Source: Somniosus microcephalus (taxonomy: Eukaryota). From it: 64,000 nt of DNA. The DNA is taken from contig CM126216.1 in NCBI GenBank assembly GCA_052327205.1, positions 110,794,001 through 110,858,000 on the forward strand. Reading direction: 5' to 3'. Below are positions 8,546-53,040 of this stretch, one piece after another. Both the position numbers and the translations under genes were made by a program. How positions within the stretch are numbered: the first letter of the stretch is position 1; each line of letters starts with the position of its first letter. Under the pieces are notes generated by a model. The model was not told the DNA's origin and did no database searches. It saw only the letters and a program-made list of their open reading frames with translations.

Positions 8546-8724
8546 ACTGGGGTACTTTGCGCCGATAAATGTCTGCACTGAAAGTGATGCTTTTATTTCA
8601 CACTGAAAGGCTGAAGTCATTTCAAACACTGTCAGTGGTACCAATGACTCATGAAGATGAAAGTTATAATTAGTTTGTGATCGCTGCAAAAATAATTTAG
8701 GGACTTTAATTTAGGGCTCCCGGT

Positions 8725-9144
8725 TAAGCAGCGCTTCGATTTCAAAATTCTCATCCTTGCTTTCAAATCCCTCCATGACCTCGCCCCTTCCCTATATCTG
8801 TAATCTCCTCCAGCTCCACAACCCCCCGAGATATCTGCGCTCCTCTAATTCTGCCCTCTTGAGCATCCCTGATTATAATCACTCAACCATTGGTGGCCGC
8901 GCCTTCTGTTGCCAAGGCTCTAAGCTCTGGAATTCCCTGCCTAAACCTCTCTGCCTCACTACCTCTCTTTCCTCCTTTAAGATGCGCCTTAAAACCTACC
9001 CCTTTGACCAAGCTTTTGGTCACCTGCCCTAATTTATCCTTATGTGGCTCGGTGTCAAATTCTTTGTGTTATAATTCTCCTGTGAAGTGCCTTGGGACGC
9101 TTTAATATGATAAAGGCGCTATATAAATACAAGTTGTTGTTGTT
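8725..9144 (+). mobile_element. L2 LINE 3' fragment
   Basis: STIGGRAF..KLWNSLP..LKTYPFDQAF; tail TATATAAATACAAG(TTG)n. Confidence 0.85.
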
Positions 9145-10118: not shown

Positions 10119-10532
10119 TGGCCAGCTGTGGCTCAGTTGGCAGCACACTCGCCTCTAAGTCGTAGAAGTTGTGGGTCTCAAGTCCCACTCCATGGGACTT
10201 GAGCACATAAAACTAGGCTGAGGGAGTGATGAGGTGCTGTCTTTCAGATGAGATGTTAAACTGAGGCCCTATCTGCTTTCTCAGGTGGACGTAAACTATC
10301 CCATGGCACTATTTCAAAGAAGTTTCGGGGAGTTATCCCTGGTGTCCTGGCCAATACTTATCCCTCAACCAACATAACAAAAACATTATCACATTGCTGT
10401 TTGTGGGAGCTTGCTGTGCGTAAATTGGCTGCTGCGTTTCCCACATTACAACAGCGACTCTACTTCATTGGCTGTAAAGTTCTTTGAGATGTCCGGTCAT
10501 GAAAGGCACTATAGATATGCAAGTTTTCTTTC
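10119..10532 (+). mobile_element. tRNA-derived SINE with Deu-like core and L2-type tail (SacSINE1-like)
   Basis: A box TGGCTCAGTTGG, B-box-like GGTCTCAAGTCC, core GTCTTTCAGATGAGATGTTAAACTGAGGCCC, tail TATAGATATGCAAGTTTTCTTT. Confidence 0.8.
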
Positions 10533-10606
10533 AAAGCAGAATATCTCTCTCTTTCCCCCTTTCTCTCTCTCCATCTATTATATGTACACACTTACACTTT
10601 GGAGTG

Positions 10607-10745
10607 TAGAACAACTTGCATTTACATAGCACCTTTAATGTGGTAAACCATCCCAAGGCACTTCACAGGAACGTTATCAAACAAAGTTTGACACCGAGCC
10701 ACATAGGGAGATATTAGGACAGGCAACCAAAAGCTTGGTCAAACA
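10607..10745 (-). mobile_element. L2 3' tail fragment
   Basis: Near-identical to 6610-6745. Confidence 0.75.
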
Positions 10746-11774
10746 GATCAAAGTGCTGGGGTTCTGATGTCTCTATAAATTGGTAAAGTACAGCTCTTGT
10801 GGTTTCTGATGTTTTCAGAAGTTGCAACTTTATAGCTCACTTCCAGCCGTCTTTTATTCTCTGTATTTTGTACCTTCTGAATTGTCTGCTAGAATGGTTG
10901 TATACTTTTGCCCATCCAAATTGATATAGGAGTAATGTTCTGGGTGAACAGATGCAAAAATGTATTTCCTCTTGCACATATAGTGGCACAAAAAGCCTTT
11001 AATGGTTATGCTACTTCCCAGTATCACAGCAGCAAAATTGTACTTCTGGCATTGGCTATTCCTATCACATGAGGTAATGTGGTGGTACAAAGGCAATCAT
11101 GGTGAAAGTCTTCTGTTATGTCACACCATGAGCTATCAAGTCAGCATTTCCAGAGGAATGACATGATGGAAATTTGCGGGTAATACTGGACTCTACAATG
11201 GTTCTGAATGCACCAGTCATAAGCGCATCAAAAAAAATAAACAGATGTAAGATCATCACTATTTCGACTTACAGGTTGTAGTATAATTTTGGAGTTTCAC
11301 TGGTGTAATCTGAGCTCCCTGATGTCACTAAACCTTCTAACCTACTGCAATAAGTATCAGCTGAGTTAACAAGAGGATGGGGCTGGACAGTACCCATAAT
11401 GAGGACAGATATCTCAGGAATCTGAGCCTAGTGGACATGCTGCTCTGTGGGAAATGTACACTGAATTGTATAAGTCTAGTAGACTATTGGAAAATGCAAT
11501 CTAATATGTGCTACTGCCTTTACTTTCAAATGAAAATTCAAATTAATATATCGATCGCATACAACATGTGATCTTGTATACCAGGTGCATCCAATGCCTT
11601 GTCTCTTGTCTGTATTATCTTATTATTTGCATGTACAAACTTCATTCTCCAGAAGTTGAAGGAAAGTACCGCCAAAAATTCAACAGCCATTTTATACAAT
11701 AAAGATGAAAAATAGATGAGCAATAGAAAGCAAGAATTGGATTAAAGAGTTCCAATAATTATTTTGTATTTGTT

Positions 11775-12185
11775 TATTGGATGTGGGCATCGCTGGCAAG
11801 GCCAGCATTTATTGCCCATCCCTAATTGCCCTTGAGAAGGTGGTGGTGAGCCGCCTTCTTGAAGCGCTACAGTCCGTGTGGTGAAGGTACTCCCACAGTG
11901 CTGTTAGGGAGGGAGTTCCAGGATTTTGACCCAGCGACGATGAAGGATCGGCGATATACTTCTAAGCCAGGATGGTGTGTGACTTGGAACTTGGAGGTGG
12001 TGATGTTCCCATGCACCTGCTGCCCTTGTCCTTCTAGGTGGAAGAGGTCACGGGTTTTGGAGGTGCTGCTGAAGAAGCCTTGGCGAGTTGCTGCAGTGCA
12101 TCTTGTAGATGGTACACACTGCAGCCATGGTACACCAGTGGTGGAGGGAGTGAATGCTTGAGGTGGTGGATGGGGTGCCAACTGC
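11775..12185 (-). mobile_element. CR1-clade LINE 3' fragment (second family)
   Basis: RSFIVAGSKSWNSLPNSTVGVPSPHGL remnant followed by a 3'UTR-like segment. Confidence 0.7.
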
Positions 12186-12787
12186 ATTAACTACCTTATA
12201 TCTCATGGCTGGACATCTATTATCCTCTATATAAAACTATCATATCAGTCAGATGATCATGTCTTATTATCAATGATAATTTATAAATAAACTTAAAGAA
12301 AAAGATGTAGAAATGAGAAACGTCCATTCAACCCATCCATCAAACAAGCCCAGTTCAGAATCAATGCAACTATTGTCATCTTTTTCTTCACCCAAGCCTA
12401 TGGCCCTTGTCTTTATTGCTCTCCTTAAATCCTGTCCACTGCCCTTCTCCTATTCCGAACCCATCTGTTACATCTGTATCAGGAATCAATCCAATTCCCA
12501 TTTGAATGCTTCAACTGAGTTAGTATTATTGCACTAGGTGGCAGTCTATTCCATAAGTCAGTGACTACTAGGAAAGTTTTTGTTTAATATTAAGTTTAGC
12601 TCTTGATTTCTTTACTTTAGAATTCTCTCCTATAGTTCTTCTATCCTTCTACATCCACTTAATCAATTTGCTTCATTATATTAAAAAACCTGGCTCGCAT
12701 CCCACTTATTTTTTTCCACAGTTGGATTTGGTTTAGTTTCTTTAATCTCTGTTTGTTTCCCAATGACCTAAAACCTAAAATGATCTG

Positions 12788-12985
12788 AGTTCCCCAATAG
12801 CACAGTGGGTAACATATCACATGATCTGGGTTGGCCACAAAGAACAAGAAGGTCTCAGAACCGATCCCTGCTCTGAGCTAAGCTAGCTCATCCCAGCCAA
12901 GACAGATGTTGGGCAATTACAATTATCCTTGGTGACTCTGAGATAGAAAGAGGGGGAAAATATCATCTAATATTCCTGCTCCTGG
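12788..12985 (+). mobile_element. Old tRNA-derived SINE remnant (AmnSINE2-like)
   Basis: TAGCACAGTGGG A-box; GAAGGTC..GATCCCTGCTCTGAGCTAAGCTAGCTCATCCCAGCC; family assignment from recall only. Confidence 0.4.
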
Positions 12986-13599
12986 AACATCTCCATGAAT
13001 GGACTTTATGTGAGGACAGGGCTGGATTCAGCTCTGACCCCCTTTGACAAGTAACCCAAATCTCCAGACACACACGTGAAGAATAGATGCCTGGGTTCAA
13101 TGGTGGTAGTGCCGATGGAATTGTACCCAGCATAAATCATTGCCTGCAGGAGAGGAAGGAAGAGAATTGAAGGGTGGCAAAAATGCATAATAATACAGCT
13201 GTAGGTTAAACAGATGCAATAAAAATTGTCACATCTGCATTCTGTGTGTATGTGTAGACTTTGATTATATATTACACAAAGCTCCTCAGTCGCATCTGAT
13301 GTGGTTGCTACATAAAGGATGAAAAAATTTACTTTATTTACAACACTATTTAATATACCTATATATATATAATGTTGTATCTAATGCATGTTTTGCCCAA
13401 CAAGGCATACTATTTGTGCCAAGCTTCAGGCGTTGCACTTCAGTCATCATGTCTTGGTATATTGCAGCTGATTCTTTCAAATTCCATGTTCATAAAAGAA
13501 TTCCAACAAATCACACTGAGGGGATAGGGAATGTGATGGAAAGTGGGTAGATAAATGTACAATGAGGAACTATTAAGAATGTACGAAAGCAATGGGAGT

Positions 13600-13961
13600 G
13601 GATTTTAAAATTCTCATCCTTCCATGGACTCACTCCGCCCTATCTCTGTAATCTCCTCCAGCCCTACAACCCTCCGAGATCTCTACGCTTCACCAATTCT
13701 GGCCTCTTGAGCATCCCCGATTTTAATCGCTCAACCATTGGTGGCTGTGCCTACAGCTGCCGAGACCCTAAGCTCTGGAATTCCCTCCCTAAACCTCTCC
13801 GCCTCGCTACCTCTCTCTCCTCCTTTAGGACACTTGTTAAACCCTGCCCTAATATATCCTTATGTGGCTTGGTGTCAAATTTTGTTTGATAATTGCTCCT
13901 GTGAAGCGCCTTGGGACGTTTTACTACGTTAAAGGCGCTATATAAATACAAGTTGTTGTTG
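13600..13961 (+). mobile_element. L2 3' fragment
   Basis: IPDFNRSTIGG..PKLWNSLP; (TTG)n tail. Confidence 0.85.
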
Positions 13962-14167
13962 ATTTTCACTTTTGGCAATGACAATAAATTGGTGGTATTG
14001 GATCGGCCAACCGTTATACACCATAGTCCCCTCTAATTTTCTTTTGAGCCGTGCGGCCCCTGTGTGGCCCATTCAAAATTCCGCGCATGCGCGATTTTTC
14101 CCTTTAAAAGCACACCCAATTCTCCCTTGCATTGCTTTATCAATGAGCAAGAAAATTGGGTGGGATA

Positions 14168-14582
14168 TACAACAATTTATTTAGGGCCTTTTACATAACA
14201 TAACATCCCAAGGAGCTTCACAAGAGGTGTGATGGGCCAAAAATCGACACCAAGCCAAAGAAGGTGACATTAGGACAGGTGACCATAAGCTTGGTTTTAA
14301 AGAGAGTCTTAAAGGAGGAGAGGGAGGTGAAGACGGAAAGGTTTAGGGAGGGAATTCCAGAGCTTAGGGCCTAGCCATCTGAAGGCATGGCTGCCAATGG
14401 TGGGGTGAGGGAAGGGGGGGACGCACAAGAGGCCAGAGTTAGAGGAATGCAGATTTCTCGGAGGGTAGTAGGGCTGGAGGAGGTTGCAGAGAGAGGGAGG
14501 GGCTAGGCCACGGAGGGATTTGAACAGATGGATGAGAATTTTTAAATGGAGGCGTTGCCAGACCTGGAGCCAAAGTAAGTCA
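14168..14582 (-). mobile_element. L2 3' fragment
   Basis: LKILIHLFKSLRGLAPPSLCNLLQPY..GPKLWNSLP on the minus strand. Confidence 0.8.
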
Positions 14583-15805
14583 AATTGCGGTGGCAGAGAT
14601 ATTTGGTAAAGAATGAAAAATGCAAATAAGGGCAAGAAAAGGCCTGGAAAATCCACCAGGCTTGGGACCACTGCAGAACTCTGTCTTCAGCCCTGCTGAA
14701 GTTCATGGGTCAGGGGTTGAGTCTTCAGGAGCGGACCTTCCGTGGTGTGAGGACACCTTTGTGGCTCCCCCAACCAGTCCAGTAGGTGGCTGGGCAGGCG
14801 TGGGGGAGGCGGGGTTGGGGTGGGAGGTGAGTCTGTGTACACCCCCCACCCCCACCATTAAATCTTTTTGCGTGCCTGAGTGGGCCTCTTACAAAGGGGC
14901 TTCTTCAACCCCCACCAATAGTTTTTTGGGCTGCTCGACTTTGGAAGTCCAAACCCAAACACTGGCCTGGAGCCTGGGATGGGTCTCTCTTCTGTTGGAT
15001 TGGTCAGTTATGCCTGGCGGGACCACGTGGATCTGTGCCAATCATATGCCAGTGCTTAGCTGAAGGCCGGCGAGCAGGTACACCTGACTTAGGGAATTCC
15101 TGGTTCTATCCCCTTTGAAACTGTGACCCTGTAATGGCCAGGCAGGGGCTTCCCCCACTAACAAAGCCCAGCACAAATGCCCAATATAGGCTGAGACCCA
15201 GCATATCTCAATCCTCGCCAACTTTTGGTCCTTTCTCCCACGGGAGGTGGACTGGGAGTGCACCAGAAGGGTGATAGGGCTGCTCCCCATATTATGCGCA
15301 GAGATTTATTTATGTTACTGGGATTTATCTATCTATCTGCAGCGAGTAAGGAAAACACTATTTGTTTTCCGTGTAAGAATGCAAAATACTGCACTGTTTC
15401 TGAGGACCTCTCTTGCAAGCTTCTTTCCAAATTCTTTCAGTGGAGAAGTGAAACCCTCCCCCAGATTCACAGCCGGTACCCTTTCCATACAGCAGTATAA
15501 CTATGAGCATTGCCATACGTGATCTGCTAGTATAATACAGAAGTAATAATACTTGAAAGCCACAACCCAATTCTGATTTTCAGCTGATATTCACCATGCT
15601 CTCCCTATTGTCCACTATTGTGTCTTAGGCTGAAGTTATATAGCCACTTTTGCAATGATACAAAGTGGCCTTGAATGTTTCTTGATATGAAAATGGCAAT
15701 ATACCTCTGGAGTGAGGTTGGCAATCTGATTCCCAAAGACACGAAGAGTGCCGTTACGATGTCAGTTTTGCAACATTACAAAGTGGCTTCATCTTCACTG
15801 CAACT

Positions 15806-16937
15806 AAGAAACATAGAAACATAGAAGATAGGAGCAGGAGTAGGCCATTCGGCCCCTCGAGCCTACTCCGACATTCAATGCGATCATGGCTGATCATCCA
15901 AATTCAGTACCCTGTCCCTGCCTTCTCCCCATATCCCTTGATCCCCTTAGCCTTAAGAAATATATCTAACTCCTTCTTGAATATATTTAATGAATTGGCC
16001 TCAACTGTCATCTGTGGTAGAGAATTCCACAGGTTCACCACTCTCTGGGTGAAGAAATTCCTCCTCATCTCTGTCCTAAATGGCTTACCCCTTATCTTTA
16101 GACTGTGACCCCTGGTTCTGGACTCCCCCGCCATCGGGAACAGCCTTCCTGCATCTAGTCTGTCTATGGCAAGAAAATCCTTCCTTATAGAATTTTATAA
16201 GTTTCAATGAGATCCCCTCTCATTCTTCTAAACTCTAGCGAATATAAGCCTAATCGACCCAATCTCTCTTCATACGTCATTCCTGCCATCCCAGGTATCA
16301 GTCTGGTGAATCTTCGCTGCACTCCCTCCATGGCAAGAACATCCTTCCTCAGATAAGGCGACCAAAACTGCACACAATACTCAAGGTGTGGTCTCACCAA
16401 GGCCCTGTACAACTGCAGCAAGGCATCCTTGCTCCTGTACTCAAATCCTCTCGCTATAAAGGCCAGCATACCATTTGCCTTCTTAACTGCCTGCTGCACC
16501 TGCATGCTTACCTTCAGCGACTGGTGCACAAGGACACCCAAGTCTCGTTGCACTTCCCCTTTTCCCAATCTATTGCCATTCAGATAATAATCTGCCTTCC
16601 TGTTTTTGCCACCAAAGTGGATAACCTTGCATTTATCCACATTATACTGCATCTGCCCAATCGCCCAACCTGTCCAAATCGTACTGGAGTTTCTCTGCAT
16701 CCTCCTCACAGCACACACGCCCACCCAGCTTTGTGTCATCTGCAAACTTGGAGATATTACATCTAGTTCCCTCGTCTAGATCATTAATATATATTGTGAA
16801 TAACTGGGGTCCTAGCACCGATCCCTGCAGTACCCCACTAGTCACTGCCTTCCACTCGGAAAAAGATCCGTTTATTCCAATTCTTTGCTTCCTGTCTGCC
16901 AACCAGTTTTCTATCCAAATCAGTACCTTACCCCCAG
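15806..16937 (-). mobile_element. 5'-truncated CR1 LINE, same family as 6792-8320
   Basis: [17 protein letters not shown] and HLEYCVQFWSP motifs; tail AAGAAACATAGAAACATAGA on + strand; frameshifts near 16655 and 16170. Confidence 0.95.
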
Positions 16938-17194
16938 AGTGACAGTATAACTCAGGTCAGGCCAGAGTTAGTTCCCAATCTGGCTCCAATATGCAGCTGC
17001 CTGATGCTCTATCAGAGAGGTCATCAAGCATTGCTGAGGCTTGTCACTGGCTAGAATATAACGTCTGTACACTGTTGAGCTAGGTTTAAAAAGTGCTGAG
17101 ATGGTCTATTGAACCTCCTTTATATACTTAAGCTGAGGTTTTTTTTGTGTGTGTGTTTGAGAGTATGGTTGCTCCTACCCTAACTCTAAAAGAA

Positions 17195-17558
17195 TTCTAG
17201 GCTGACAATCCAGTGCAGTGCTGAGGGAGTGCAGCACTGTCGGAGGTGCCGTCTTTTGGATGAGAAGTTAAGACGAGGCCCTGTCTGCTCTCTCAGGTGG
17301 GCGTAAAAGGTCCTATGGCATTATTTCAAAGTAGAGCAGGGGGGTTATCTCTGGCGTTCTGTCCAATATTTAGCCCTCAACCTCCACCGCAATGAACAGA
17401 TTATGTGGTCATTATCTCATTGCTGTTTCCAGGATCTTGCTGTGCGCAAATTGGCTGCTGTGTTTCCTACATTACAGTAATGAATACAATTCTAAAGTAC
17501 TTCATTGTCTGTAAAGCAGTTTGGGACAAATCCACTATCTAAATGCAAGTTCCTTCTT
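17195..17558 (+). mobile_element. Deu-core SINE, 5'-truncated
   Basis: Collinear with 10210-10530. Confidence 0.75.
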
Positions 17559-17954
17559 ATCTTTTTACCACAGTCCAACCAGACGATAAAGCAAGAGATG
17601 TGAAGTCCTGTCCAGCAGGCAGACCTAATGGCCTCGAGTTTGTACAGGGTGCAGGATACTCCAGCCTGACATCTTACCATATTTTAAAAGTGTCCAGTTG
17701 GTTAATTTACACGTTATTTTTAAATTAGGAATGAAGCACTTGTCCTGCCTGTTTAAAAAGTCAGCCACCTGGGGATACGATCTATGTACATGTATCCAAG
17801 CATGCACATACAGAGTTACATTGTCAATGTGTTGAGTATGAGGCACAATTAGCAGTATGGCTGGGATCTACCAAATGAGCATCGTTCTACAGAAGTGCCC
17901 ACCTTGAAGAAGATCTGCTCTTCTCTCCAATAAACTGTTAAATCTCTAGCTTCC

Positions 17955-18063
17955 TACCGTTCTGATGAAAGGTCCCAGACCTGAAACGTTAACTCTTGTT
18001 TCTCTCTCCACAGATGCTGCCTGACCTGCTGAGTGTTTCCAGCATTTTCTGTTATTATTTCAG
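17955..18063 (+). mobile_element. Short repeat, probably a Penelope-like element terminus, with a minimal hammerhead ribozyme motif
   Basis: GTT-CTGATGA-A-AGGTC(CCA)GACCT-GAAACGTT-AAC at 17959-17993; second copy of the repeat at 54315-54400. Confidence 0.65.
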
Positions 18064-19211
18064 TGTACAGATGCCTGTCTGAAACAGATGTCTGGAGCAC
18101 AAACTGCAACCTAATATGCCAACAGCTGAAGCACATCTGCTAGTAATAGAGGGGTGTAAGAAATATTTAAACCCAAAGAAATCGCAAGTTATAAAAGGAA
18201 TAATGATCCTGCAAAAAGTAGGTTTGCCAACTCAACAGATGAGGGCTGGCTGATGACTTAGAGAGAATTCCATTCACATCAGCTATGCACAGAGGGCTCA
18301 GATCATCACAAGGACAGGCCTCCCAGCAGACATACCTAAACTGATGAGGAGGACAGCATGGAGCCAGTAGGATAAGCAAGATGTCTTTAGAAACACAACA
18401 AGACATTTAGAACAGAGGCAGGGAGCTCAGAAAGATGGGAGTGGGGTGGGGGGCTGTCAGAGGTACCCTTGCCCTTGTAATTGGACAATGGGATGGGTGA
18501 AGATGATTGACACCAGGTATCCACCAGCCCATCGAAATAAGGTAAAAAAAATGGCCGACCAGGAGAGGAAGGCACGCAGTTAGGGGCAAGGGCTTCCCTG
18601 AGGTGGATGCAGGCTGGCAATGGCCTAACACCTCCAACAGCTTGAGAGACGACCCAACGGAAGTGACCGCTCCTGCAGGCTGCAGGGATCCACCCAATCC
18701 AAGTTTACCATTCTGCCTCACCCTCCGCCCGGTCGTTCTGTTCTGTTCTGTTCTGCTCAGGGGCCGTAGATCGCCCTCAGCTGTCACGGGTTATATGTCT
18801 ACTGTATCTATTTCAATCGCATGTAGTATCTGATTACACTTAAACTGTAGGGCCTAGAAATTCAGTCTGGCCACTTTTGGGGCGGTAAAGTCGGGCGGTC
18901 GCTAAAGTTAGCGCCCGCCGGAAAGTGTAGGCCACTTCGCCGAAATTCAGTAGATTTGGCCAAGAGTTTGGGCGAGCGCTGAAACTGGCGTTGCACTGCT
19001 ATCTTCAGGCGCTAAGCCGGCGATGCGGACTGATAACGCCGAGGCCGGGCGCAGCGCAGGTGCGGTCATGTTTTGATTGACAGCAGACACCCTGACGCCG
19101 GCCAGCTCTTAAAGGGGGAAGGGTCGACTTTGACTGCTGCCACGCCCTGCATAGTGGAGCCCTGCAGCTAGGCCTCAACACTGCTGGTGGACCCAAATAG
19201 CGCCTGAAGCC

Positions 19212-21359
19212 ATGGAGAAGGCCCGTGAACGAGCGCAGCGCTTCTCAGAGCATGCTTTGAGGGTGCTGGTTAATGGTGTGGAAAAGAAAAGAGAGATCTT
19301 GTGCCCGGACAGTGGCAAGAAGGCTCCCAGGAGGCAGTACAGGAGAGCCTGGAAGAAAATCGCCCACAGGGTGTCATCCACCAGCGATGTCCCCAGGAGT
19401 GCGGACCAATGCCGCAAGAAGTACAACGACCTCACTCGGATGGTGAAGGTGAGTACCCTTTCCAGTGTCCTCCTCATCCTTGCATGTGCACCTCACATTA
19501 TGGGCAAAGGGACCTCAAAGGCCTAATGGGCAGCCCTCCTCCCGCAGCTATGGCACTGGCATGATCATCAATAGCACTTTCTGCACTTAACACACTGGCC
19601 AAGCTATTCGACCATGGGAGGCAGTGCACACAGCAACAGGGCACCACACTGGCCAAGCTATTCGACCATGGGAGGCAGTGCACACAGCAACAGGGCACCA
19701 CACTGTACTTAGAGGCCGTCCTTTCTCTTGCAGGCCAAGCTGGCGCGGAATTTGAGGAGCCAGTCTGCCACCGGGGGAGGCCGTCCCCAGTACCAGGCGC
19801 TCAGTGAGCTGGAGGAGCGCGTGGCTCGACTCATGCATGGCCGGGTGACTGGCCCTGTTGCCATTGGAGATGCGGACCCTGTACTGGGACCCACTGGTAA
19901 GGACATGACCGGTTGGACCTCTCTCGTTGCCCTTGCGCTTCAGATCTACATCCTTTCCCACTGTCCGACCAATGTGCATAATGCCACCACTCATGCCTCC
20001 CTCGCTGATGCCCTGTCCTCACTCTAAAGCTACTCTTGTGCCTTCCTGCTTTCAGCTGGTGAGGAGGAGGTCCCTGAAGCTGCGAGTGTCAGTCCCTCGG
20101 AAGAGGAGGACGACGAGGAGCAAGAGGAAGGCGGCACATCGGGGGAACCCTCATCTGCGCCAGGGGATGGCAATGGAGGGGACACGTCTTGCCTGGAGGA
20201 GAGCCAGGGGGAAGTGTTGCAGGGGGGTGTAGCTCCTGTGCCCAGTGGCATCCTGCCACGCGGGAAGGGTCGGACAGCTCGGCGGCCTTCTCCCCAGAGG
20301 GGGGAAGTGTTGCAGGGGAGGGCAGTTCCTGGGCCCAGTGGGGTCGAGGCACGCGGGAAGGGTTGGGCAGCATGGCGGCCTTCTCCCCAGAGGGGGGAAG
20401 TGTTGCAGGGGAGGGCAGTTCCTGGGCCCAGTGGGGTCGAGGCACGCGGGAAGGGTCGGGCAGCTCGGCGGCCTTCTCCCCAGAGGGAGAGTCCGCCCTC
20501 CAGTCCGGAGACGGTCCTCGCCCAGGAGGTGCGCCTCCTTGATGAGATGTCCGCGGCGTCGGAGCGGCGCCACAAGGAGTTCATGGGGGTTGTGGGACAG
20601 TTGCCTCAGGCCATTGAGTCCCTGGCTCATAGTGTGGTCGCTTTCGGGGAATCACAGGCCAGGGGGGTCGAGCAACTCGCGGCAGCACACGACAGGGGTG
20701 TCCAGCAACTCGCGGCAGCACAGGACAGGGGTGTCCAGCAACTCGCGGCAGCGCAGGACAGGGGTGTCCAGCAACTCGCGGCAGCGCAGGACAGGGGTGT
20801 CCAGCAACTCGCGGCAGCGCAGGACGCGAGTCGCGAGTCCATGAGTGGTGCCGTCCAGACACTGGCAGATCTGATGCGGGCACAGACCAGGGCAGTTCAG
20901 GCACTCACTTCTGCCACACTCGCTGTGGTGCGGAAGCATCGCCAGGGCACCCGCCGCCCTGCTGCAGCACAGCGGTCTGGCCTCCACCAGATTGCTGCGC
21001 TTGCTGCACTGCCAGCCCGGCCGAGTGCCAGTGTCTCTGGCGAACAGCGCAGGCTTGGCATCAGCCAGCTTGCCCCCATTGGTGCAGCCGACACTGCCAC
21101 TCCCCCAGCCAAGGTGCGACGAGCTGCTGCTGAGACTGATGCTGGGCAGCCACAGCTGCAGCAGTCAGCAGCCGGCCCCTCCCGGGCCGGGCCTCGTCTA
21201 GGCCGACCCCCAAGGGCATCTGCCGTCACGCATTGTGGCCCTCATGAGCCTTCCCCCAGCCTTGCCACACCCACAGGGCCCAGGTTGAGGTGGAGCAGCA
21301 GGTCGGGCAGGGGCCGGAGAAGCCTGCATAAGGACTCGCCCTCTCGGCACACCCAGTAG
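19212..21359 (+). CDS. Harbinger Myb/SANT-like DNA-binding protein (MSANTD/NAIF1-like); exons 19212-19448, 19734-19896, 20056-21359; 567 aa
   Basis: RAQRFS..AWKKIA..RSADQCRKKYNDL trihelix, TGGG motif in exon 2, GT-AG introns (phases 0 and 1) joining into one open frame. Confidence 0.88.
19591..19705 (+). repeat. 54-bp tandem duplication in intron 1 of the Myb gene
   Basis: CACACTGGCCAAGCTATTCGACCATGGGAGGCAGTGCACACAGCAACAGGGCAC at 19591 and 19645. Confidence 0.95.
20206..20487 (+). repeat. 93-bp (31-aa) coding tandem repeat, 3 copies
   Basis: GAAGTGTTGCAG at 20211, 20304 and 20397; unit GEVLQGRAVPGPSGVEARGKGRAARRPSPQR. Confidence 0.93.
20661..20825 (+). repeat. 33-bp (11-aa) coding tandem repeat, 5 copies
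   Basis: RGVQQLAAAQD units. Confidence 0.95.
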
Positions 21360-21635
21360 AGTGTGGTGATAGCGGGTTTTCTTATATGGGGGTGTTTGTG
21401 TTCTGGGGGGGGCTTATATTGGTAAGGCCAAAGATGAAGGCATTTTTTGTTTTTATGGGGGTGTTTGTGTTGTGGAGGGGGGGGCTTATTTTTGTAAGGC
21501 CGATGATGAAGGCCAATTGGATGGGCAAGTTTTGTTATTCCTCCCCAGGTTGTGGGAGTGACAGATGTTTTTGACTGTTTTTTGGGGGTCTCGTCTGTTT
21601 TTCTGTTTCATGTGGGAAGGGCCCTGAGTTTGTAA

Positions 21636-21655
21636 AATAAAGCTTTTTATTTATT
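21636..21655. terminator. Back-to-back polyadenylation signals for the two convergent Harbinger genes
   Basis: AATAAA (+, 21636-21641) followed by TTTATT at 21646-21651 and 21650-21655 (AATAAA on minus). Confidence 0.7.
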
Positions 21656-21768
21656 CAGCATGTCCAGGTGTCATGTTTCAAGTGGTTGTTGCGTTAACCG
21701 GCTGAGGGCTTGCGGAGCGGCTGCATTCAGGTGCGTTCATTGCCACAGGCCATTCCCTGACAGGGGGC

Positions 21769-22842
21769 CTAGAAGTGTCGTTCAATAAGCCGCCGGCGGA
21801 CGGCCCTTGGACCTTGTGGCTCCCTCCTGGGCTGGTACTCCTCCTCCTCCTCCTCCTCCTCCTCCTCATGGTCCTCCTGCTCGTCCTCCTGAGGTGGTGG
21901 TGCAATGTCAGGTGGCAGTGCCTGAGTCCTGCGGATAGCCAGGTTGTGCAGCATGCAGCACACGACGACGAACTGGGAGACTCTATCCGGCGAATACTGT
22001 AGAGATCCGCCGGAACGATCCAGGCAGCGGAACCGTTGCTTGAGGACGCCAATCGTTTGCTCTATGATGTTCCTTGTGGCTTGATGGCTTTCGTTGTATG
22101 CCTCCTCCGCTGGGGTCCTGGGCGCGCGGAGCGGGGTCATGAGCCATGTACACAAAGGGTAGCCCTTGTCCCCAATAAGCCATCCCCTTGGTGGAGGCTG
22201 TGCCTCGAACATGTCAGCCACAGTAGTCTGGCGCAGGATAAATGCATCGTGGCTGCTTCCTGGAAAGCGGGCATTGACAGCTAGGATGCGCTGCCTGTGG
22301 TCACACACCAGCTGTACATTGAGGGAATGGTAGCCCTTCCGGTTGCGGTAATCCTCGGCATTGTCGATAGGTGCCCGCATAGCCACATGCGTGCAGTCAA
22401 TGGCGCCCTGCACCATGGGGAAGTCCGCGATCCTGCCAAATCCGACTGCACGCTGCTCCTGCCTCTCTAGGGTCATGGGGAAGGAGATGAATTGGTGTCT
22501 CCTCGCAAAAAGTGCATCGGTGACCTGCCGGATGCAGCGATGCGCGGCGAACTGGGAGATGTTCGCTATGTCCCCAGCAGCGGCTTGGAAGGAGCCGCTT
22601 GCATAAAAGTTCAGAGCCACCGTGACCTTCACTTCCACCGAGAGAGACGTCCTGCACATCAGCTGTGGACGCAGATCTCTGTGAAGCAGCTGGCAGATCT
22701 CTGCAACCACCTCCCTTCTGAAGCGCAGCCTCTTAACACAATGCGCCGCTGTCATGGTGAGATAGGACACCTGCTGCCGGTATTGCCTGAGTGGGTAAGG
22801 CCTATGTTGCCGACGCCTGATGGCCCCTCTGCGTCTAGGCAT
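21769..22842 (-). CDS. Harbinger DDE transposase (HARBI1-like), 357 aa from ATG 22842
   Basis: GAIDCTH, RKGYHSLNVQLVCD, PGSSHDAFIL, GDKGY and RNIIEQTIGVLKQRFRCL motifs with D-D-E intact; acidic tail; lies inside TIRs, so not the domesticated HARBI1 gene. Confidence 0.93.
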   Translation of the reverse strand: MPRRRGAIRRRQHRPYPLRQYRQQVSYLTMTAAHCVKRLRFRREVVAEICQLLHRDLRPQLMCRTSLSVEVKVTVALNFYASGSFQAAAGDIANISQFAAHRCIRQVTDALFARRHQFISFPMTLERQEQRAVGFGRIADFPMVQGAIDCTHVAMRAPIDNAEDYRNRKGYHSLNVQLVCDHRQRILAVNARFPGSSHDAFILRQTTVADMFEAQPPPRGWLIGDKGYPLCTWLMTPLRAPRTPAEEAYNESHQATRNIIEQTIGVLKQRFRCLDRSGGSLQYSPDRVSQFVVVCCMLHNLAIRRTQALPPDIAPPPQEDEQEDHEEEEEEEEEEYQPRREPQGPRAVRRRLIERHF

Positions 22843-23603
22843 GGCTGGCCCTCTCACACAGCGTCTGCGAGCCCTTCACACATAATGCTGCAACTGAGGG
22901 TTGGAACCCCATACAGCCCCCATAATAAACTTGCAAACAGTGAAATCACAATGATTCAAATGTCAAAGCTCTGGCCAGAAGCCAAAAATACCTCTCCTAT
23001 GTTGTCCCAAATCAGTAAGCTCTGTTCCTTGGTCTCTGTCCAGAAATCCAAAGCAGTAAAGTCATTGCAGCAAAATGGCTGGGCTTTATAGGTCAGTGTA
23101 AGTGCCCTTTAATTAGCACTCCCCGAGGCCCACAGGGCCTCTGTTGCGTTCCACTTCACAGTTCTTAACAGCGCCACGCCCACATTGGGCGGGCGCCACT
23201 GAATTTCCGGTTTGGGGCGCACAAACAGCGTTGCACGACGAAATGACGTCATAAGCTGCACGCGCAGCTGAGTGGGTGCAAACACTTTGCGCCGGCGCTA
23301 AATGTCTACTGAATTTGGGCGTAGGCGCAGATCGGCCTGCGCCCGGGCGCTAAGTGCCTAGCGCTGGAAATATACCCCTCTTATGGCGTTAACGGCTGGC
23401 GAACGCAACTGAATTTCTAGGCCTAGCTCTTTAATAAAATGCTTTACAACTCCTAAGACCCTTTGGGTGATCTGTATGGGACCTGTGATACAAATTCTTA
23501 CAGGGGGGAAAGTCTATCCTCTCCCATACAACTAAATATTGTAAATAAGGTACTAAATAATGCTACAAAGAATAGCAGAACAAACCTACAGTACTATTAC
23601 TAA

Positions 23604-25420
23604 GGGCTGAATTTTGCCAGCGCTCAGAGTACAGGTTTGGAAGCGGGTCCACCATCAAAAGCAAAATGATTGTCAGGGTTGGGAGCCCGCTGCGAACCCA
23701 CCTCCATGTAAGTTTCCAAATTGTTGGATCTGCGATTTCAGAACAGACCCGACACCAAGCGGTAGGGGAGGCATTTAAGATACTTAACTGCTTGTTAAGT
23801 GCTTGTTTACTACTTTTTTGCCAGCCTTTTTCACATTTTTAACGGGGTTCATGTCGTTCGGAGATCACGTCAGGTAAGTAGGTCGGGTTCTCTGTGTCTC
23901 CCCATTGCTGTGAATAGGTGACAGCTGCAAAAATGGTATGAAAGCTACCATTTCACAGCTGTTAACTTTCCAATGTCAGAAGTTTGAGCCTTCAGGACTT
24001 GGAAGACACTTTTGAGCTGTATGCAGTTTGGAAGTGTTTGGAGTAAACTCTCCATCCAGTGTCACCTCCTTGGAGCAAGCTCTCTCACCATTGACAGATC
24101 GCTTCTGTCATCTCAACTTCAGCTGCCATCTATTCCAGCAACATTGGTGCCTTTGAGAAAATCTCACCTTGGTCCTCTAAATCCCTCCACGATCAGCCCC
24201 AACACCAACATCACCAGGCACACCAACATCACCAACAACAATACCAACCTTCTCCGCAATCACCTGATGCTGCACAGGACACAGGGCATCAGCACCCGAC
24301 AGCATTGCTGCCCGGGAGGTCAGTGATGACATCACCATGGCCAGATTTACTTCACTTGACGCTGTACACCCTGGCTGCCACATGTTGCGCCAGGTTAACA
24401 CCATCCCACACCAGCACCAGAAAGCATCCCTACAATGTCCAAGCCATTCCTTTCACACTCATCACCAATGCGGGGGATACCATTATGTCTCATCATTCAC
24501 TGCAACTCACTAAGACACTTCCAAAGGTGAGCACAGATCTGTACAATAAGGGAAAGTGTTGAAAAAAAAATTTCAATGTTTGACAACACATTAACTGAAA
24601 ATTTACATGAACATTGCATAAAACACCCAAGTGGTTACCCTTGTGTGTTGTTAGTTGGTATGATTGCACTAGGATGAGGGTGCGTGTGAGGGCTGGCTAG
24701 TGAGATAGATGTTATGTTCATAAATAAATAGACATTCTTATTATGAACATTACAATGGGGAAGTGATAATGTAGATAGAGAGGGATGAGTGGAGATGCAC
24801 TGTAAGTTGGTGTGAGTAAGAATGTGCAGGAGTAAGGTAGGGAAGGCAGAGTTATGGGGATGTGATGAGTGGCACAGCAGGATGAGGTTGAGTATGGCTT
24901 TGCAGTAATGTTTCGTGATCTACTGAGATCAATTAAAGGTTTGCGCCACTGCAGCCAGGTTCTCCTGACGACATCCCTGCTTGTCTCCTCCTGTGCAATG
25001 TGCAACCAGGCTGCGTTGGTGTCCTGGGGCGGTCCTCTTCCGCCCTTGGAAGGGAAGATAACCTGCCTGCGTGCTGTGACTCCCTCCATAAGCATATGGA
25101 GGGAGTTATGCGAGAGCCTGGGTGCAGCCGTGCACCTTTGTGCAGTGATTGTCAGTGTTTGCAGCACCTCAATACTGCAGAACACTGACAGCACAACTGT
25201 CAAAATCAATGCAGCCGTGGTCCCTTTAAGGAAACTAGCTGATGACGCGTCATTTGATGTCATCAGACCCGCTTCCATTTAATTGGCCGGGAACCCCGCA
25301 GGGCGGGCTTAACAAGCCCTATTAACGGAAAATCCTTTTTACAGAGTGGCTGCAGCCGTGAGCGAGACCAGAACCCGCCAACCACCTCTCCCGCCACAAT
25401 TCCACCTCCATTGGCAAAAT
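23604..25420 (-). mobile_element. Second, degenerate internally deleted Harbinger element
   Basis: Left end GGGCTGAATTTTGCCA, partial right end TGGCAAAAT (25412-25420); Myb remnant AAPRLS..AAWLHIAQE..RTWLQWRKPLIDL on minus at ~24920-25130. Confidence 0.7.
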
Positions 25421-25608
25421 CGTGTTTGTTGCAATGTATTTACTTGGATCACAAAACCTTGTAATGTTTATTCAATGACCTCACGCTACCTGAGTCTGAG
25501 GGAAGTCTGAATCCAGTAAGTCAACAGGAATGAATAACTTTCACCCACTAAAATTGTGCAAACTATTCAAGGAATCGATAGTTAAGAAAGGAAGACTTGC
25601 ATTTATAT

Positions 25609-26018
25609 AACAACAACTTGTATTTGTATAGCACCTTTAACATAGTAAAATGTCCCAAGGCGCTTCACAGGAGTATTATAAGACAAAAAAATTTATACTG
25701 AGCCACATAAGGAGAAATTAAGGCAGATGACCAAAAGCTTGGTCAAAGAGGTAGGTTTTAAGGAGCGTCTTACAGGAGGAGAGAGGTAGAGAGGTGGAGA
25801 GGTTTAGGGAGGGAATTGCAGAGCTTAGGACCCAGGCAACAGAAGGCATGGCCACCAATGGTTGAGTGATTATAATTAGGGATGTTTAAGAGGGCAGAAT
25901 TAGAGGAGCGCAGATATCTCAGGGGATTGTGGACTGGAGGAGATTACAGAGATAGGGAGGGGCGAGGCCATGGAGAGCTTTGAAAACAAGGATGCAGATT
26001 TTGAAATCAAGGTGTTGC
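25609..26018 (-). mobile_element. L2 3' fragment inserted into a SINE tail
   Basis: Reverse complement of the 8725-9144 family; SINE tail at 25584-25608 and SINE body from ~26018. Confidence 0.85.
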
Positions 26019-26414
26019 TTTCATGACCTCAGGACATCCCAATGAAGTACTTTAGAAGTGGAGTCACTATTGTAATGTAGGAGACCCGGCAGCCAATTTG
26101 TGCACAGCAAGGTCCCACAAACAGCAATGGGATAAATGACCAGATAATCTGTTAGTGAGGCTGGTTGAGATATAAATATTGACCAGGACACAGGGATAAC
26201 TCCATTGCTCTTCTTCAAAATAGTGCCACGGGATCTTTTACGTCCACCTGAGATGGTAGGTAGGACCTTGGTCAAACAGTACCTCCAACAGTGCAGCATT
26301 CTCTCAGTCCTGCACTGGAGTGTCAGCCTAGATTGTGTGCTGTGGAGTGGGACCTGAACCCACAACCTTCTGAGGCAGAGATAAGAGTGCCATCCATTGA
26401 GTCACGGCTGACAC
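26018..26414 (-). mobile_element. Deu-core tRNA-derived SINE
   Basis: Minus-strand head GTCAGCCGTGACTCAATGG..GGTTCAGGTCCCACTCC; collinear with 10119-10532. Confidence 0.8.
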
Positions 26415-26539
26415 CGTGGAGATGTCAGGAGGTGTAGGAGAGAATCAAAAGTACATAACACAATCATATAGGATTCATAAACCGGCTGGCCTTTTTATTG
26501 TTTCATTAAGTCCCCCCTGCCTATTGTTCAATGTGTGAT

Positions 26540-27300
26540 GACACATCACCAATCTCATAATCTAGAATTTAAACGCAATGATTTAAAGGCCCGTGGAGAA
26601 ATCCTTTAGCAGGGAGGCATTCGTTAACTGTCAAGCCGTCCCCAGTATTGTGCCTATTTTATGAAATGACAAATGTCAAGGAGGGAACAAAAAGCAGCTA
26701 CACTTATATACCAGGTTCAGGGTGACATTGTGTAACTGTCTTGTACTTGCCTGATAGCCATCTATTATTACACTGAATGTATAAAATGCTATTGGACTAG
26801 AGCCACTTACTTCTGCATCTCTTGCTGTGCGCTCGTCAGCAGGCAGCTGTGTGAGGAAGAGGGCAATGGTGTTTAGTTCTATTACCCCGGCATAAACCCA
26901 CTTAAAGATGTTTCTCAAATGGAGGCGAATTAACTGACTAAACAGAAAAATATATTTAAGCACATTATCGCTGGTCAGGCTGTCATTCTGGGCATTGTAG
27001 CTCAATGATGGTCTCTCCTTGTTGCCATATCCCCAAAGGAAGTCCAATAATCTGGGCAATAGAATTATCTTCGATTCTACTGCATTTGGTTCATCATTGG
27101 CCAGGTTTTTTTTTTATAACGCGAACACATTAAATCTAGCGCAGAAAGTGACTCCATAATTCCTGGGGTTAATTTACTGTTGGATTACAATATTAACTCC
27201 AATGGTGAGATCATCCACTCTCTAACTGGTGTGCCTCACTTTGTAACGACGCTGGGAACACTTAAAATATCTCCGGGGTCATTGGAAAAATGATTAATAA
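26540..27300. promoter_or_regulatory. Putative conserved upstream Pax6 element
   Basis: Unique-sequence island between TEs with E-box CAGCTG and homeodomain/Meis motifs; conservation not tested. Confidence 0.45.
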
Positions 27301-27883
27301 GTTATTATTGTTGCACACTAGAGTGTTTTTTTCCTCGTTGTAGCCGTGGGTTAGAAAGGTTAACAACTGTCAGTGGATTCCGTTTTAGTGTTACGACATT
27401 CTCGGGCTATTGTCGCTTGCTTCATGCAAGGATAACGAAACCATCGCAAGTCAGAAGTAAGTTCATTTCCATTAGTGACAAATCCGGGATTTCAGTATAT
27501 TTGGCTCCGACCATTTGAAATGATACAAACGTGTAGTTAGTCTCTACAATCGACTTCTTGCTACAGTATGTCTTTGATTCGCGTCTTTATCTTCCCTGTC
27601 CACTCTATGCACTGTAACCACTTCTATGGATTATTATGAAGTGAATGTTGTATCTTTTCAGACGGGGTGATTTATCACCTTCCCTGGCTTTTTATATCTC
27701 AGGTGACAATATAGAGATTTTAAATCACAACTTAAAATATAAACTTTCATTTAGTAACGAAATTGACATCGAGCCTGAATTGTATGAAATTCTGATGCAG
27801 AAACTCCCTGATGTAAGCATATTTTATCCGTTCTAACATTCCCGGTTCAGTTCATTGGCACTACAAGCCTCTCTGTGAGCAAG

Positions 27884-28800
27884 TTACATAGAATTACATA
27901 GAATTTACACCACAGAAACAGGCCATTCGGCCCAACTGGCCTGTGCCGGTGTTTATGCTCCACACGAGCCTCCGGCCATTCTATGTTCTTCATCTCACAC
28001 TATCGAGATATCCTTTATCCCTTTCTCCCTCGTGTGTTTATCTAGCTTCCCCTTAAATGTATCTGTGCTATTCACCTAATAATAATAATTCAACTTTATT
28101 GTCATTGTACAATGCACAACGAAATGTGATCTTGCAAGCTCCCATGAGTCCAGTACAAATAACATTAACATTAAACGTAAATAGCACCGTCCTGGGAGAA
28201 GCAAAGCCACTGCGTCTGTGCACGCTGCCATTCCATTTCACCATTCCTCCTGTCCGACAATCTTCAGCCCAACCCCCAAGCCTGCTCACCAGCCGCCCCT
28301 CCCGTGACCTATCTGCACCTGGTCTTTCACCTGCTGGTCACCCCTCCAGGTACATAACCAGGCCTGGCTCTGCTTAGCTTCCAAGCATTGTAGGTTAGTG
28401 ACCCTGTCCCTAGTCCCAGGAACCTCAACTACTCCAAGCAAGTTCCACATGCTCACCACTCTTTGGGTAAAGAGGTTTCTCCTGAATTCCTTATTGGGTT
28501 TATTAGTGACTCTCTTATATTGATGGCCCCTAGTTCTGGTCTCCCCCACAAGTGGAAACAACTTCTCTACTTCTACCCTATTGAAACCCTTCATAATTTT
28601 AAATACCTCTATCAGGTCACCCCTCTGCCTTCTCTTTTCTAGAAAAGAGCCCCAGCCTGTTCGCTCTTTCCCGCTAGTTATATCCTCTCAGTTCTGGTAT
28701 CATCTTTGTTTATCCTTTTTGCACCTTCTCCAGTGCCTCTATATCCTTTATGTAATATATATGGAGACAAGAACTGTGCACAGTGCTCCAAGTGTGATCT
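27884..28800 (-). mobile_element. CR1 3' fragment interrupted by a SINE at 28078-28421
   Basis: (TACATAGAAT)2 tail; KLFPLVGETRTRGHQYK..RRNLFTQRVVSMWNLL remnant. Confidence 0.8.
28078..28421 (-). mobile_element. 5S rRNA-derived SINE (SINE3-like)
   Basis: Minus strand GGAAGCTAAGCAGAGCCAGGCCTGGTTATGTACCTGGAGGGGTGACC matches the 5S internal control region; tail CAATGACAATAAAGTTGAA(TTA)n; ACCT on both flanks. Confidence 0.8.
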
Positions 28801-29649
28801 TAGAAAGGCTCGATATACACTTAATTCATGCAGCGTAACTCACCTCCATCACAACCAGCAACTCAAAATATACACCTAACGTTTTAAAACATTGCAGGCA
28901 TACACACAGGAGATGTGTAAAAAGCTCCAATTCAATGTCTGGTTGATAAGGTCGACAATCAAATCAAACTTCTAAGATTATGATCTCTTTTCTAGAGAAA
29001 AGAGCCCCAGCCTGTTGTCTTTCCTGATAGTTCTGCCCTCTCAGTTCTGGTATCATTCTTGTAAAAAAAAATGCCATTCCTCCTATGCTTCTATACTCTT
29101 ATAATATGGAGGCATTGCATTTACCAGCATTCCACTGCAAATCTTCACCAGTGATGTAGTTGTGGCCACGAAACGATTTCCAAGTAGTCAATCTAGAATG
29201 TTCTGCCCGCGGAACAAACTGAATTTATTTTATTGATTTTGTTTTCTTTATTGGATTTTCACAGTTACAGTGAGGTCCTGCCTGTACTCTAGCCCTCGAT
29301 GTTCATGTATAAGAGCAGGAAAAACCACATCTGTACCCAACTGTGCATCGGAATGCTGCTTGATGCATCTAACTAGCTCCGAGTAAAAACATAATTCAAA
29401 AAAATGTTAAAACTTTTCTTAAACCCAACTACCATTATAAGTTGCAATCGGTTTAATCTAAAGAGAATGACAGAATGCACTTGAGGACGGAGGACGGTTG
29501 CTCTTTGCTCTTTAGATTGCTGAGCATGTACTATTAGACATCTACAATGCACCAGGGACATCAACTGAATCTGAGGCTTTCTTGCATTGAAGCCCAACAC
29601 ATTCTTGAAGTTACCCTGAGGTCAATAGTACATTGGTTTATTTGGTCTC

Positions 29650-30063
29650 CAGGTTGCCTAATGCTTCATTCGATTTCAAATTTCTCATCCTTGTTTTCAA
29701 ATCCCTCCGTGGCCTCACCCCTCCCTATCTCTGTAATCACCTCTTGCCTCACAACCCCCTGAGATATCTGCACTCCTCTAATTCTGCCCTCTTGAGCATC
29801 CCTGATTATAATCGCTCAACCATTGGTGGTGGTGCCTTCTGTTGCCTGGGCCCCAAGCTCTGGAATTCCCTCCCCAAACCTCTCCGCCTCTCCTCCTTTA
29901 AGACGCTCCTTAAAACGTATCTCTTTGACCAAGCTTTTGGTCACCTGCCCTAATTTCTCCTTATGTGGCTGGGTGTCAAGAAGTGTTGTCTTATAATACT
30001 CCTGTGAAGTGCCTTGGGACGTTTTAATTCTTAAAGGCGCTATATAAATACAAGTTGTTGTTG
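29650..30063 (+). mobile_element. L2 3' fragment
   Basis: FKFLILVFKSLRGLTPPYL..GPKLWNSLP..FKTLLKTYLFDQAF. Confidence 0.88.
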
Positions 30064-31049
30064 CTGATCAGTAATGGCGCATTCATAACTGTTATAGGCG
30101 CAGTAAGGTGGTGGTTATGCTGCTGGTGCTAGTTACCTCAAAGGTTGTAAGTTCAAATCCCACCATATCGAGTTATGAAGTTGAATCCAATAAATCGGGT
30201 CTTTTTTGGGGGGGCTAGCACCTGGTTGATCTCCAGATGATCTGAAGATAAGGCGCTAATTATGACCTTATTGGCTGGTAAAAATGCTATATTGCTTGGC
30301 ATAGTTATTACAGTAATCTGCGTGATGTAATTGAGCATTACTTTACGATTACCACCTTCCTAGCTCAGGCCAATATATTAACCTCACCGACAGGCGTTTG
30401 TAAAGTGTGCACAAGGATAGGGAAACACACCAATAATTCTTGGCGTTATTTTGATAACGACGACATTGCAACTATAAGCCAAGAACACGTTAAGGGAGAT
30501 TGTTAAAGGCACGTGCAGTGGGTATGAATGGCCCTGTGATCTATAGGGGACGTTTTAGATGCATGTCGGGGTAGAGGTGCGGAATAAAACGGATTCGTCC
30601 AACAGTTACAACTAAAGTTACCCACATTGATAGTTTTACGTGCTGTTGAGAGTGCTGTAGTGTGGTATTGTGTACAAGGCTTGGTCCAGTAACCGGCGGT
30701 GGACGGGTAGAAATATCGGACAGGTGCACAGAACACGAGGAGAATAGATACAGATCCACTATAAGGAGTCCTGATCTGGTTCGCACACTCACAGGAGCCC
30801 TTCGCTTTACCGGTGCCGGCGGGTACTGCATCCGGGGAACTGGGTCAGAACGGTAAGTTTTAGAAGCTAGCTAATTAAGTGCTATTTTCAAATATGCGAG
30901 GGCATTTCCCCTTAATGTATAATCGGGATGGATCGTTGATTCTGTGTCAGGTTCTGAACGACCTGCTTGCAATGTTTGCGTTTAGTTGGTGTCTTGTCAA
31001 CTAGCAGCATGCCAAACATGCTAACTCCCTCTCCCTGTCTCTGTCCTGG

Positions 31050-31260
31050 CAGAAAAATGACAAATGTGCTGTTTTATCCATACAATTTATTTCATTATTG
31101 TTTCCAGCACCATGAATCATAATCAATCACAGGGAAGTCCAGTTGGCAGGTGTCAATCTTGATATTTTTTTGTGTGTCTCCGTCTATATTTAATCCAATT
31201 ACAAGGGTCAAGAAGTAAGTGCAAATCCCCTTGTTACAGCTCACTTGTTATTCCCGATTT
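31050..31260 (+). promoter_or_regulatory. Pax6 pancreatic (P) enhancer orthologue
   Basis: CATTATTGTTTCCAGCAC..ATCAATCA (Pbx, 31122-31129)..GGAAGTCCAGTTGGCAGGTGTCAATCTTG (Meis/Prep)..TTTAATCCAATTA, as recalled from the mouse element. Confidence 0.75.
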
Positions 31261-31369
31261 ATGGTAAAAGTTAAACATGATCATATTTGAGTTTTTGGGG
31301 AGGGGGGGAGCGGGGGGGGGGGGCAATAATTTCGGATCTGAGCATACAGAGAGAGAGAGCGCCGCCGCG

Positions 31370-31590
31370 CCTTTCATTAAACAGGTGTTCTTTGGTCGTT
31401 AATGGAATATTTATGAGTGTTTATGTGTAAATGAATCATCTTGTTATTTCCTAAAGGAGAGGGAGGCTTTAATGATGGAGGCTGTGTCTCGGCTCACTGC
31501 GCTTTCGGCTCCAATTGTAGATCGAACTCAGCCCTTGTCACGCCGGGAAGCAGTGAATCTATAACATACAGGACGTGCCTGTCCACATAC
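31370..31590 (+). promoter_or_regulatory. Pax6 ectodermal (lens/cornea) enhancer EE orthologue
   Basis: GGCTTTAATGATG..CAATTGTAGATCGAA..CCTTGTCA (Meis, 31535-31540)..GTGAATCTATAACATACAGGACGTGCCTGTC matches the recalled mouse EE core. Confidence 0.85.

Positions 31591-52519: not shown

Positions 52520-53040
<521 letters not shown>

Follow-up and report, generated by a model that had tools for sequence, protein, structure and literature searches.

The 64,000-nucleotide stretch of DNA analysed here (the window) carries, upstream of the gene Pax6, a Harbinger-type DNA transposon at 18851-23423 (4,573 bp) with a Myb/SANT gene and a DDE transposase gene. We consider it likely that this element is a damaged, mostly passive copy of a high-copy two-gene family of the Harbinger-like (PHIS) superfamily, probably inserted after the window allele had split from those of two close relatives, and with no shown effect on Pax6.

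The element is genuine, having both Harbinger-type anatomy and a target duplication. Perfectly paired 16-bp terminal inverted repeats (TIRs) are flanked on both sides by a TAG triplet (Table 1), and a search of the window that allowed up to 3 mismatches returned these two TIR copies only. A TIR boundary shifted to 18850 was ruled out, since 18851 is the entry point of four listed joints and 4,576 bases are skipped in the empty site described below. The CpG observed/expected ratio was 0.88 and 0.99 in the 400-bp end bins of the element, compared with 0.05-0.40 in seven bins of the flank 16001-18800, and promoter-like AT-rich boxes lie near the CpG-rich ends. The initial annotation of this DNA had claimed perfect TIRs, an exact 3-bp duplication and CpG-rich ends, and all three were borne out. 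A GC-rich 8-mer occurs 10 times in the two element ends versus 2 times in the interior; ten end copies were reached in 0 of 100 shuffles (mean 6.1, maximum 9). The two genes are convergent, both ending within the element.

To place the element within its family, contigs of runs X1, X2 and X4 and RNA reads of run X16 (about 24% of its reads) were aligned to positions 18000-24200 at 90% likeness; runs X3 and X5-X11 (word shares 0.10-0.73) were left out of the comparison. Three organisms hold the element (word shares 0.79, 0.78 and 0.55), with 83,772 (X1), 71,014 (X2) and 11,239 (X4) contigs placed on these 6.2 kb. Single element contigs, at 7-10% divergence, were about 90-290 times deeper than the flank contigs, which had a depth of 20-24 in X1 and 37-38 in X2. 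The family is high-copy in all three organisms, at roughly hundreds to a few thousand copies: summed element depth, which is not itself a copy number, came to 230-3,100 when divided by up to 31 for contig overlap.

The transposase matches DDE_Tnp_4 (E=1.4e-39), and D160, D210, D236 and E272 (numbered in the 368-aa open frame) are all present. Its ATG at 22923 has a strong context and gives an MGAV start that resembles the MG starts of the nearest homologs; a start there puts 48 residues before a conserved Arg, compared with 47-50 in 6 of 10 aligned shark and ray homologs. Reading from this ATG, an in-frame TGA follows after 15 codons. The other copies have G at 22878 and hence CGA at this codon: by summed contig depth, G accounted for 581,802/587,346 in X1 (99.1%), 504,084/522,453 in X2 (96.5%) and 21,560/21,560 in X4 (100%), and it was found in 124 of 124 RNA reads of X16. 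The remaining 1-4% of the depth in X1 and X2 is non-G, so that the site varies among other copies too. Since other copies carry CGA here, the family transposase is 384 aa long and the window copy carries a nonsense change at codon 16. An autonomous element has both reading frames intact from their natural starts; in the window copy the transposase frame is broken by this TGA, and the only product left to it may be a protein of 357 aa from the second Met at 22842. The transposase had been annotated as open with a DDE triad, of which the triad stands and the open frame, read from ATG 22923, does not. A search of solved structures with the transposase gave 2 matches, both with E>0.3 and neither meaningful.

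An exact empty site, in which 18847 is joined directly to 23424 and one TAG is kept, was found in X1 (depth 31.3, 2 contigs) and in X2 (depth 43.7, 1 contig), near the single-copy depth of the flank contigs. This exact empty site confirms the 3-bp duplication, and it suggests that two very close relatives lack the insertion; their unique flank contigs differ from the window at 3 of 431 bases (X1) and 3 of 572 (X2). X4 has no cover at 18207-18413 and is thus uninformative on this point. The insertion is probably recent, or polymorphic or lineage-restricted.

Among the 23 variant rows listed for the element, 15 differ from at least 95% of the depth in both X1 and X2. CpG transitions make up 9 of these 15 near-private changes, while CpG accounts for about 10% of the element. 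An excess of CpG transitions is a mark of germline methylation, which suggests that the window copy has probably been methylated in the germline. At the mutation rate of 7e-10 per site per generation reported for another shark species (PMC10587355), even the six non-CpG changes imply a time of the order of a million generations, unless some of them also occur in a subfamily within the source genome. The earlier description of the insertion as young and possibly polymorphic is supported as probable by the empty site at about single-copy depth, with 'young' being relative given so low a rate.

If the element works like zebrafish Harbinger3, its Myb protein would bind the subterminal motifs, carry the DDE transposase to the nucleus and recruit it to the element ends. 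Cut-and-paste transfer into a 3-bp target, duplicated in the process, would then have produced the anatomy and duplication that we observed. For the window copy, that target would have lain in a small dispersed repeat of the repeat-laden region that precedes the Pax6 enhancers, and the insertion probably postdates the separation of the window allele from the alleles of the two very close relatives. Later germline methylation may have led to the CpG transitions, one of which made the codon-16 stop. The result would be a mostly passive copy that proteins from other copies could still move. The proposal that the insertion is possibly still mobile is accordingly weakened for autonomous movement, by the stop and the CpG transitions, and is conceivable for movement by proteins made elsewhere.

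Family transcription was seen in X16, where 13,797 RNA reads were placed, 698 of them at least 99% alike. Given the usual stranded library, their strand bias is consistent with sense transcription at 19242-19862 (Myb) and 21726-22346 (transposase). Myb intron 1 was covered as deeply as the exons, and part of exon 3 showed the opposite strand bias. No X16 reads fell at any of the 15 joints listed of 89, so the introns are neither backed nor contradicted by RNA. This signal is that of the family, largely unspliced, and not expression of the window locus. We hold it possible, if on balance improbable, that the family is still transposing in closely related sharks, with codon 16 intact in the majority of copies, high copy number, sense transcription over parts of both genes and a polymorphic insertion. 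Were this so, it would be a natural, unreconstructed two-component Harbinger of a vertebrate that has a target preference of its own and belongs to a lineage for which loss of Harbingers was suggested; in addition, a segregating 4.6-kb insertion would lie at a distance of 8 kb from the lens and pancreas enhancers of Pax6, its regulatory effect testable by allele. Active copies, if there are any, would make a two-component transposon from a vertebrate available in its natural form for work on targeting and precise excision, and would also yield presence/absence markers with which closely related sharks could be compared. Some copies of the family may be intact, and the family is a better lead than the window insertion.

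Several points weigh against seeing the window copy as a damaged, recently inserted member of a high-copy family. Summed contig depth does not equal copy number, and copies were estimated from runs X1, X2 and X4. Because rare variants are lost from Logan contigs and the variant listing covers 40 of 783 rows, both the absence of the window alleles in X1 and X2 and the number of private changes are tentative. From Met 22842 an open frame of 357 aa retains all catalytic residues, and a multi-member homolog cluster, P0070, has an equally short N-terminus (17 residues before the conserved Arg versus 21). The target lies in a dispersed repeat (contig counts of 26-45 at 18793 and 23443), a diverged paralogous empty site is present in X2 as well, and the empty-site contigs may be paralogous rather than orthologous. 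With junction flanks repeated in this way, the insertion could be older and fixed in its lineage; organisms A and B would then owe their empty-site contigs to paralogous target repeats or to precise excision, excision in this superfamily being usually perfect (PMC2836001). The near-private changes, at least 15 in 4,573 bp, would fit such an age, as they amount to something of the order of a million generations at 7e-10, a rough figure based on another species' rate. An older insertion nevertheless seems unlikely to us: the joint is exact, with 45 letters on its shorter side, it was found at about single-copy depth in two organisms independently, and no filled left or right junction was present among the 24 pieces listed of about 167,000.

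Damage to the transposase could also be less consequential than we propose, the copy still being autonomous if ribosomes scan past the 15-codon frame or re-initiate after it and the intact Myb protein cooperates with the 357-aa transposase. In favour of this, the frame that begins at Met 22842 is open with D/D/D/E in place, the N-termini of homologs are variable (17 residues before the conserved Arg in P0070 and 24 in P0103, versus 21 here), and the Myb frame, TIRs and subterminal motifs are intact. However, ATG 22923 has a stronger context than Met 22842, the stop lies only 33 nt before Met 22842, and a 25-codon frame starting from the out-of-frame ATG at 22912 overlaps this Met. In addition, the N-terminus of the transposase is the reported binding site of its Myb partner (PMC9392472). 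The CpG decay pattern moreover suggests silencing, and we regard an autonomous window copy as doubtful.

Pax6 is encoded on the + strand and, as located with probe motifs, opens with MQNS at 49931; its paired-box exons follow at 52601 and 53324, and its homeobox begins at 63016. Published Pax6 upstream blocks, one of them labelled a minimal lens and cornea fragment (PMC1414112), match the window at 31189-31204 and 31512-31526, 7.8-8.1 kb from the element, which lies about 7.7 kb upstream of the conserved pancreas/lens enhancer blocks as a whole. In mouse, the Pax6 lens enhancer lies about 4 kb upstream of P0 (PMC5137874). In the window, P0 would lie near 37.7-37.8 kb, judging from a CCAAT/TATA-like stretch. 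The initial annotation had put the element about 14 kb upstream of P0 and about 7.6 kb from the enhancers, and the enhancer part holds, with blocks 7.8-8.1 kb away, while the P0 part depends on this stretch. Window-internal repeats occupy 30% of 1-18847, 18% of 23427-31000 and 1% of 31001-63062, and a boundary of constraint seems to lie near 30-31 kb. The insertion is most likely neutral, and the capture of its promoters by Pax6 enhancers that the initial annotation had envisaged found no support. An effect on Pax6 regulation would require its CpG-rich promoters to compete for, or be driven by, the pancreas and lens enhancers 8 kb away, or methylation to spread from the element toward them. 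The distance of 7.8-8.1 kb, the CpG-rich ends with their AT-rich boxes and the transcription of the family in organism B would be in keeping with such an effect. We nonetheless judge it very improbable, because the two convergent genes stop within the element, its position is upstream of the enhancers and outside the enhancer-to-promoter interval, other repeats (for example 29669-30063) lie nearer to the enhancers, and the RNA run comes from an organism showing the empty site and so gives no locus-specific signal. Hardly credible is a sequencing or assembly error at the TGA in a fully intact copy, which the CGA of nearly all other copies would allow, but which is countered by the TGA being a CpG transition, like 8 other near-fixed differences of the window copy, and by the non-G depth of 1-4% at 22878 in X1 and X2.

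The element is a shark member of the PHIS superfamily, of the two-gene Myb type, and the Harbinger identity first proposed for it is supported. It combines a DDE_Tnp_4 transposase with an intact triad, a Myb/SANT second gene, a 3-bp duplication and TIRs of 16 bp starting with GG, where PHIS TIRs are shorter than 60 bp and start with A or G (PMC4482050). This two-gene anatomy has been described before (PMC4482050, PMC9179366). The NuwaI and PIF/Harbinger groups (Han et al. 2015, PMC4482050) have two open reading frames (DDE; Myb/SANT) and TIRs of less than 60 bp that start with G, as here, and their mean lengths are 4,462 and 4,124 bp, respectively, versus 4,573 bp in this case. The TAG duplication, known from a single site, is neither the TWA of PIF/Harbinger nor exactly the CWG of NuwaI, from which it is one base off; the TIR starts with GGC and not with the GGG usual in NuwaI; and single flanks seen at other insertions give no clear match to TWA or to CWG. 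Since TAG does not exactly fit either target and one site cannot define that of the family, we assign the element to PHIS as a whole. The target may resemble a 15-bp vertebrate target consensus, for which a literature search found nothing. In X2, a joint from 23425 to 18844 (depth 60) connects the right end to the left end across about 11 bases that end like the left flank in the window, possibly reflecting two adjacent copies or an extended target preference.

The zebrafish elements Harbinger3_DR and Harbinger3N_DR share Myb-like and DDE proteins, a 3-bp duplication and repeated subterminal motifs with the present element (PMC2836001, PMC9710019), which is likened to them by anatomy and not by sequence identity. 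Zebrafish Harbinger3 was rebuilt from a consensus, whereas here both genes are found in a natural copy with one nonsense change. The closest of the listed proteins are shark and ray entries annotated 'putative nuclease HARBI1', with Pristiophorus japonicus P0001-P0003 at 63-66% identity, and the host was taken to be a shark or ray from these best transposase matches. None of the 120 listed of 481 matches exceeds 66% identity, so the family seems to be unrepresented in the protein set among those listed. In a quick tree of 61 rows chosen by length, six Pristiophorus proteins and the window protein together form a group of 7 rows (SH-aLRT 97). D, D and E are all kept in 55 of the 110 homologs that cover the triad, and many HARBI1-annotated shark and ray homologs are decayed or domesticated. 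Domesticated HARBI1 and NAIF1/MSANTD belong to the same two protein families (PMC9392472) but are single-locus host genes; unlike these, the element is bounded by TIRs and a duplication, occurs in many copies and shows an empty site. Several HARBI1-like cross-species pairs (P0005/P0012/P0013, P0006/P0009, P0011/P0017, P0019/P0058 and P0040/P0051) show 63-89% identity between distant sharks and rays, for instance 83% for Carcharodon/Chiloscyllium and 89% for Scyliorhinus/Rhincodon. Most have the catalytic Glu replaced (K, R, Q or T), and they look like several domesticated elasmobranch Harbinger transposase genes, perhaps undescribed.

In a 2022 survey, no Harbinger was found in elephant shark, loss in cartilaginous fish was suggested and a check of other species was asked for (PMC9179366). 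A paper on the whale shark lists the Harbinger superfamily by name only (PMC8455134). Our literature search, which did not cover most subscription journals or Repbase/Dfam, found no paper devoted to a full-length shark Harbinger family. A full-length, high-copy and recently mobile shark Harbinger family with both genes is of modest importance.

The Myb/SANT gene had been described as an open spliced frame of 567 aa, and we could confirm this. Its three exons on the + strand join into 567 aa with zero internal stops, both introns have GT-AG ends, and exon 1 matches Myb_DNA-bind_5 (PF13873, E=2.5e-16). A word-indexed homolog search with exon 1 returned 0 of 26 candidates; a later HMMER search found 81 homologs, 79 of which had a hit in the junction alignment. 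The exon 1/2 junction was spanned by 57 of these 79, in the case of P0004 gap-free, and homology thus supports the predicted intron 1. Intron 2 is more weakly supported by its GT-AG sites, the open frame and weaker alignments, such as that of one homolog, P0135, over residues 11-553 (29% identity). Intron 1 contains a perfect 54-bp tandem duplication (19591-19698). Among the Myb-like proteins, P0127, P0204-P0206 and P0208-P0211 form a cluster that is 90% conserved across four ray species (Hypanus, two Mobula and Hemitrygon) and may represent a domesticated Harbinger Myb gene.

Table 1. Coordinates of the Harbinger-type element and of the Pax6 upstream context in the window.
Feature	Position	Strand	Basis or remark
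Left target-site duplication, TAG	18848-18850	.	Single TAG kept at the empty-site joint
Left TIR, 16 bp	18851-18866	+	Perfect pairing; four listed joints from other insertion sites enter at 18851
Left subterminal cluster, GC-rich 8-mer, 6 copies (at most 1 mismatch)	18890-19053	.	Candidate Myb-binding sites
Myb/SANT exon 1, 79 codons, bulk of Myb domain	19212-19448	+	Frame and domain match
Myb intron 1, 285 nt, GT-AG	19449-19733	+	Homologs align across junction
Myb exon 2, end of Myb domain, TGGG motif	19734-19896	+	Frame and homolog alignment
Myb intron 2, 159 nt, GT-AG	19897-20055	+	Support weaker than for intron 1
Myb exon 3, low complexity, in-frame 93-bp x3 and 33-bp tandem repeats	20056-21359	+	
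Convergent polyadenylation hexamers (+ at 21636, - at 21655)	21636-21655	.	Putative function
DDE transposase gene, 384 codons from ATG 22923, TGA at codon 16; 357 aa open from second Met 22842	21769-22923	-	
Premature TGA (CGA Arg in other copies)	22878-22876	-	CpG-type transition
Right subterminal cluster, GC-rich 8-mer as at left end, 4 copies	23188-23351	.	
Right TIR, 16 bp	23408-23423	-	Perfect pairing with left TIR
Right target-site duplication, TAG	23424-23426	.	Empty-site joint 18847->23424
Conserved Pax6 upstream blocks outside the element, including the lens/cornea (EE) minimal fragment	31093-31590	+	

A second, decayed Harbinger-type element lies at 23601-25430, 180 bp to the right of the intact one, and this zone had therefore tolerated such insertions before. 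It begins with TAA followed by a TIR-like GGGC start at 23604, holds a Myb/SANT remnant on the minus strand (24919-25116, PF13873, E=1.1e-4) and has a degenerate right end at about 25413-25420. Repeated in X1, X2 and X4 as well, it does not clearly resemble the intact element at the DNA level. An older transposase fragment considered at 18580-18599 (inverted repeat I12) was dropped, as it had no tblastn support from 30 homologs. Rfam and ARAGORN scans of the window gave no matches. A 5'-truncated long interspersed element (LINE) with reverse-transcriptase frames is present in two copies, 7134-8321 and 15809-16936, that are 91% alike over 1.1 kb, with an older copy at 28454-28824. A 301-N scaffold gap (63063-63363) directly follows the splice donor that ends the first homeobox exon of Pax6; beyond this gap, across which the sequence may not be continuous, 63364-64000 is a LINE reverse-transcriptase fragment unlike the other LINEs of the window. 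Between the transposon and the enhancer block, two AT-rich, non-repeated segments noted by eye, 26440-26720 and 27100-27310, look like further conserved non-coding elements.

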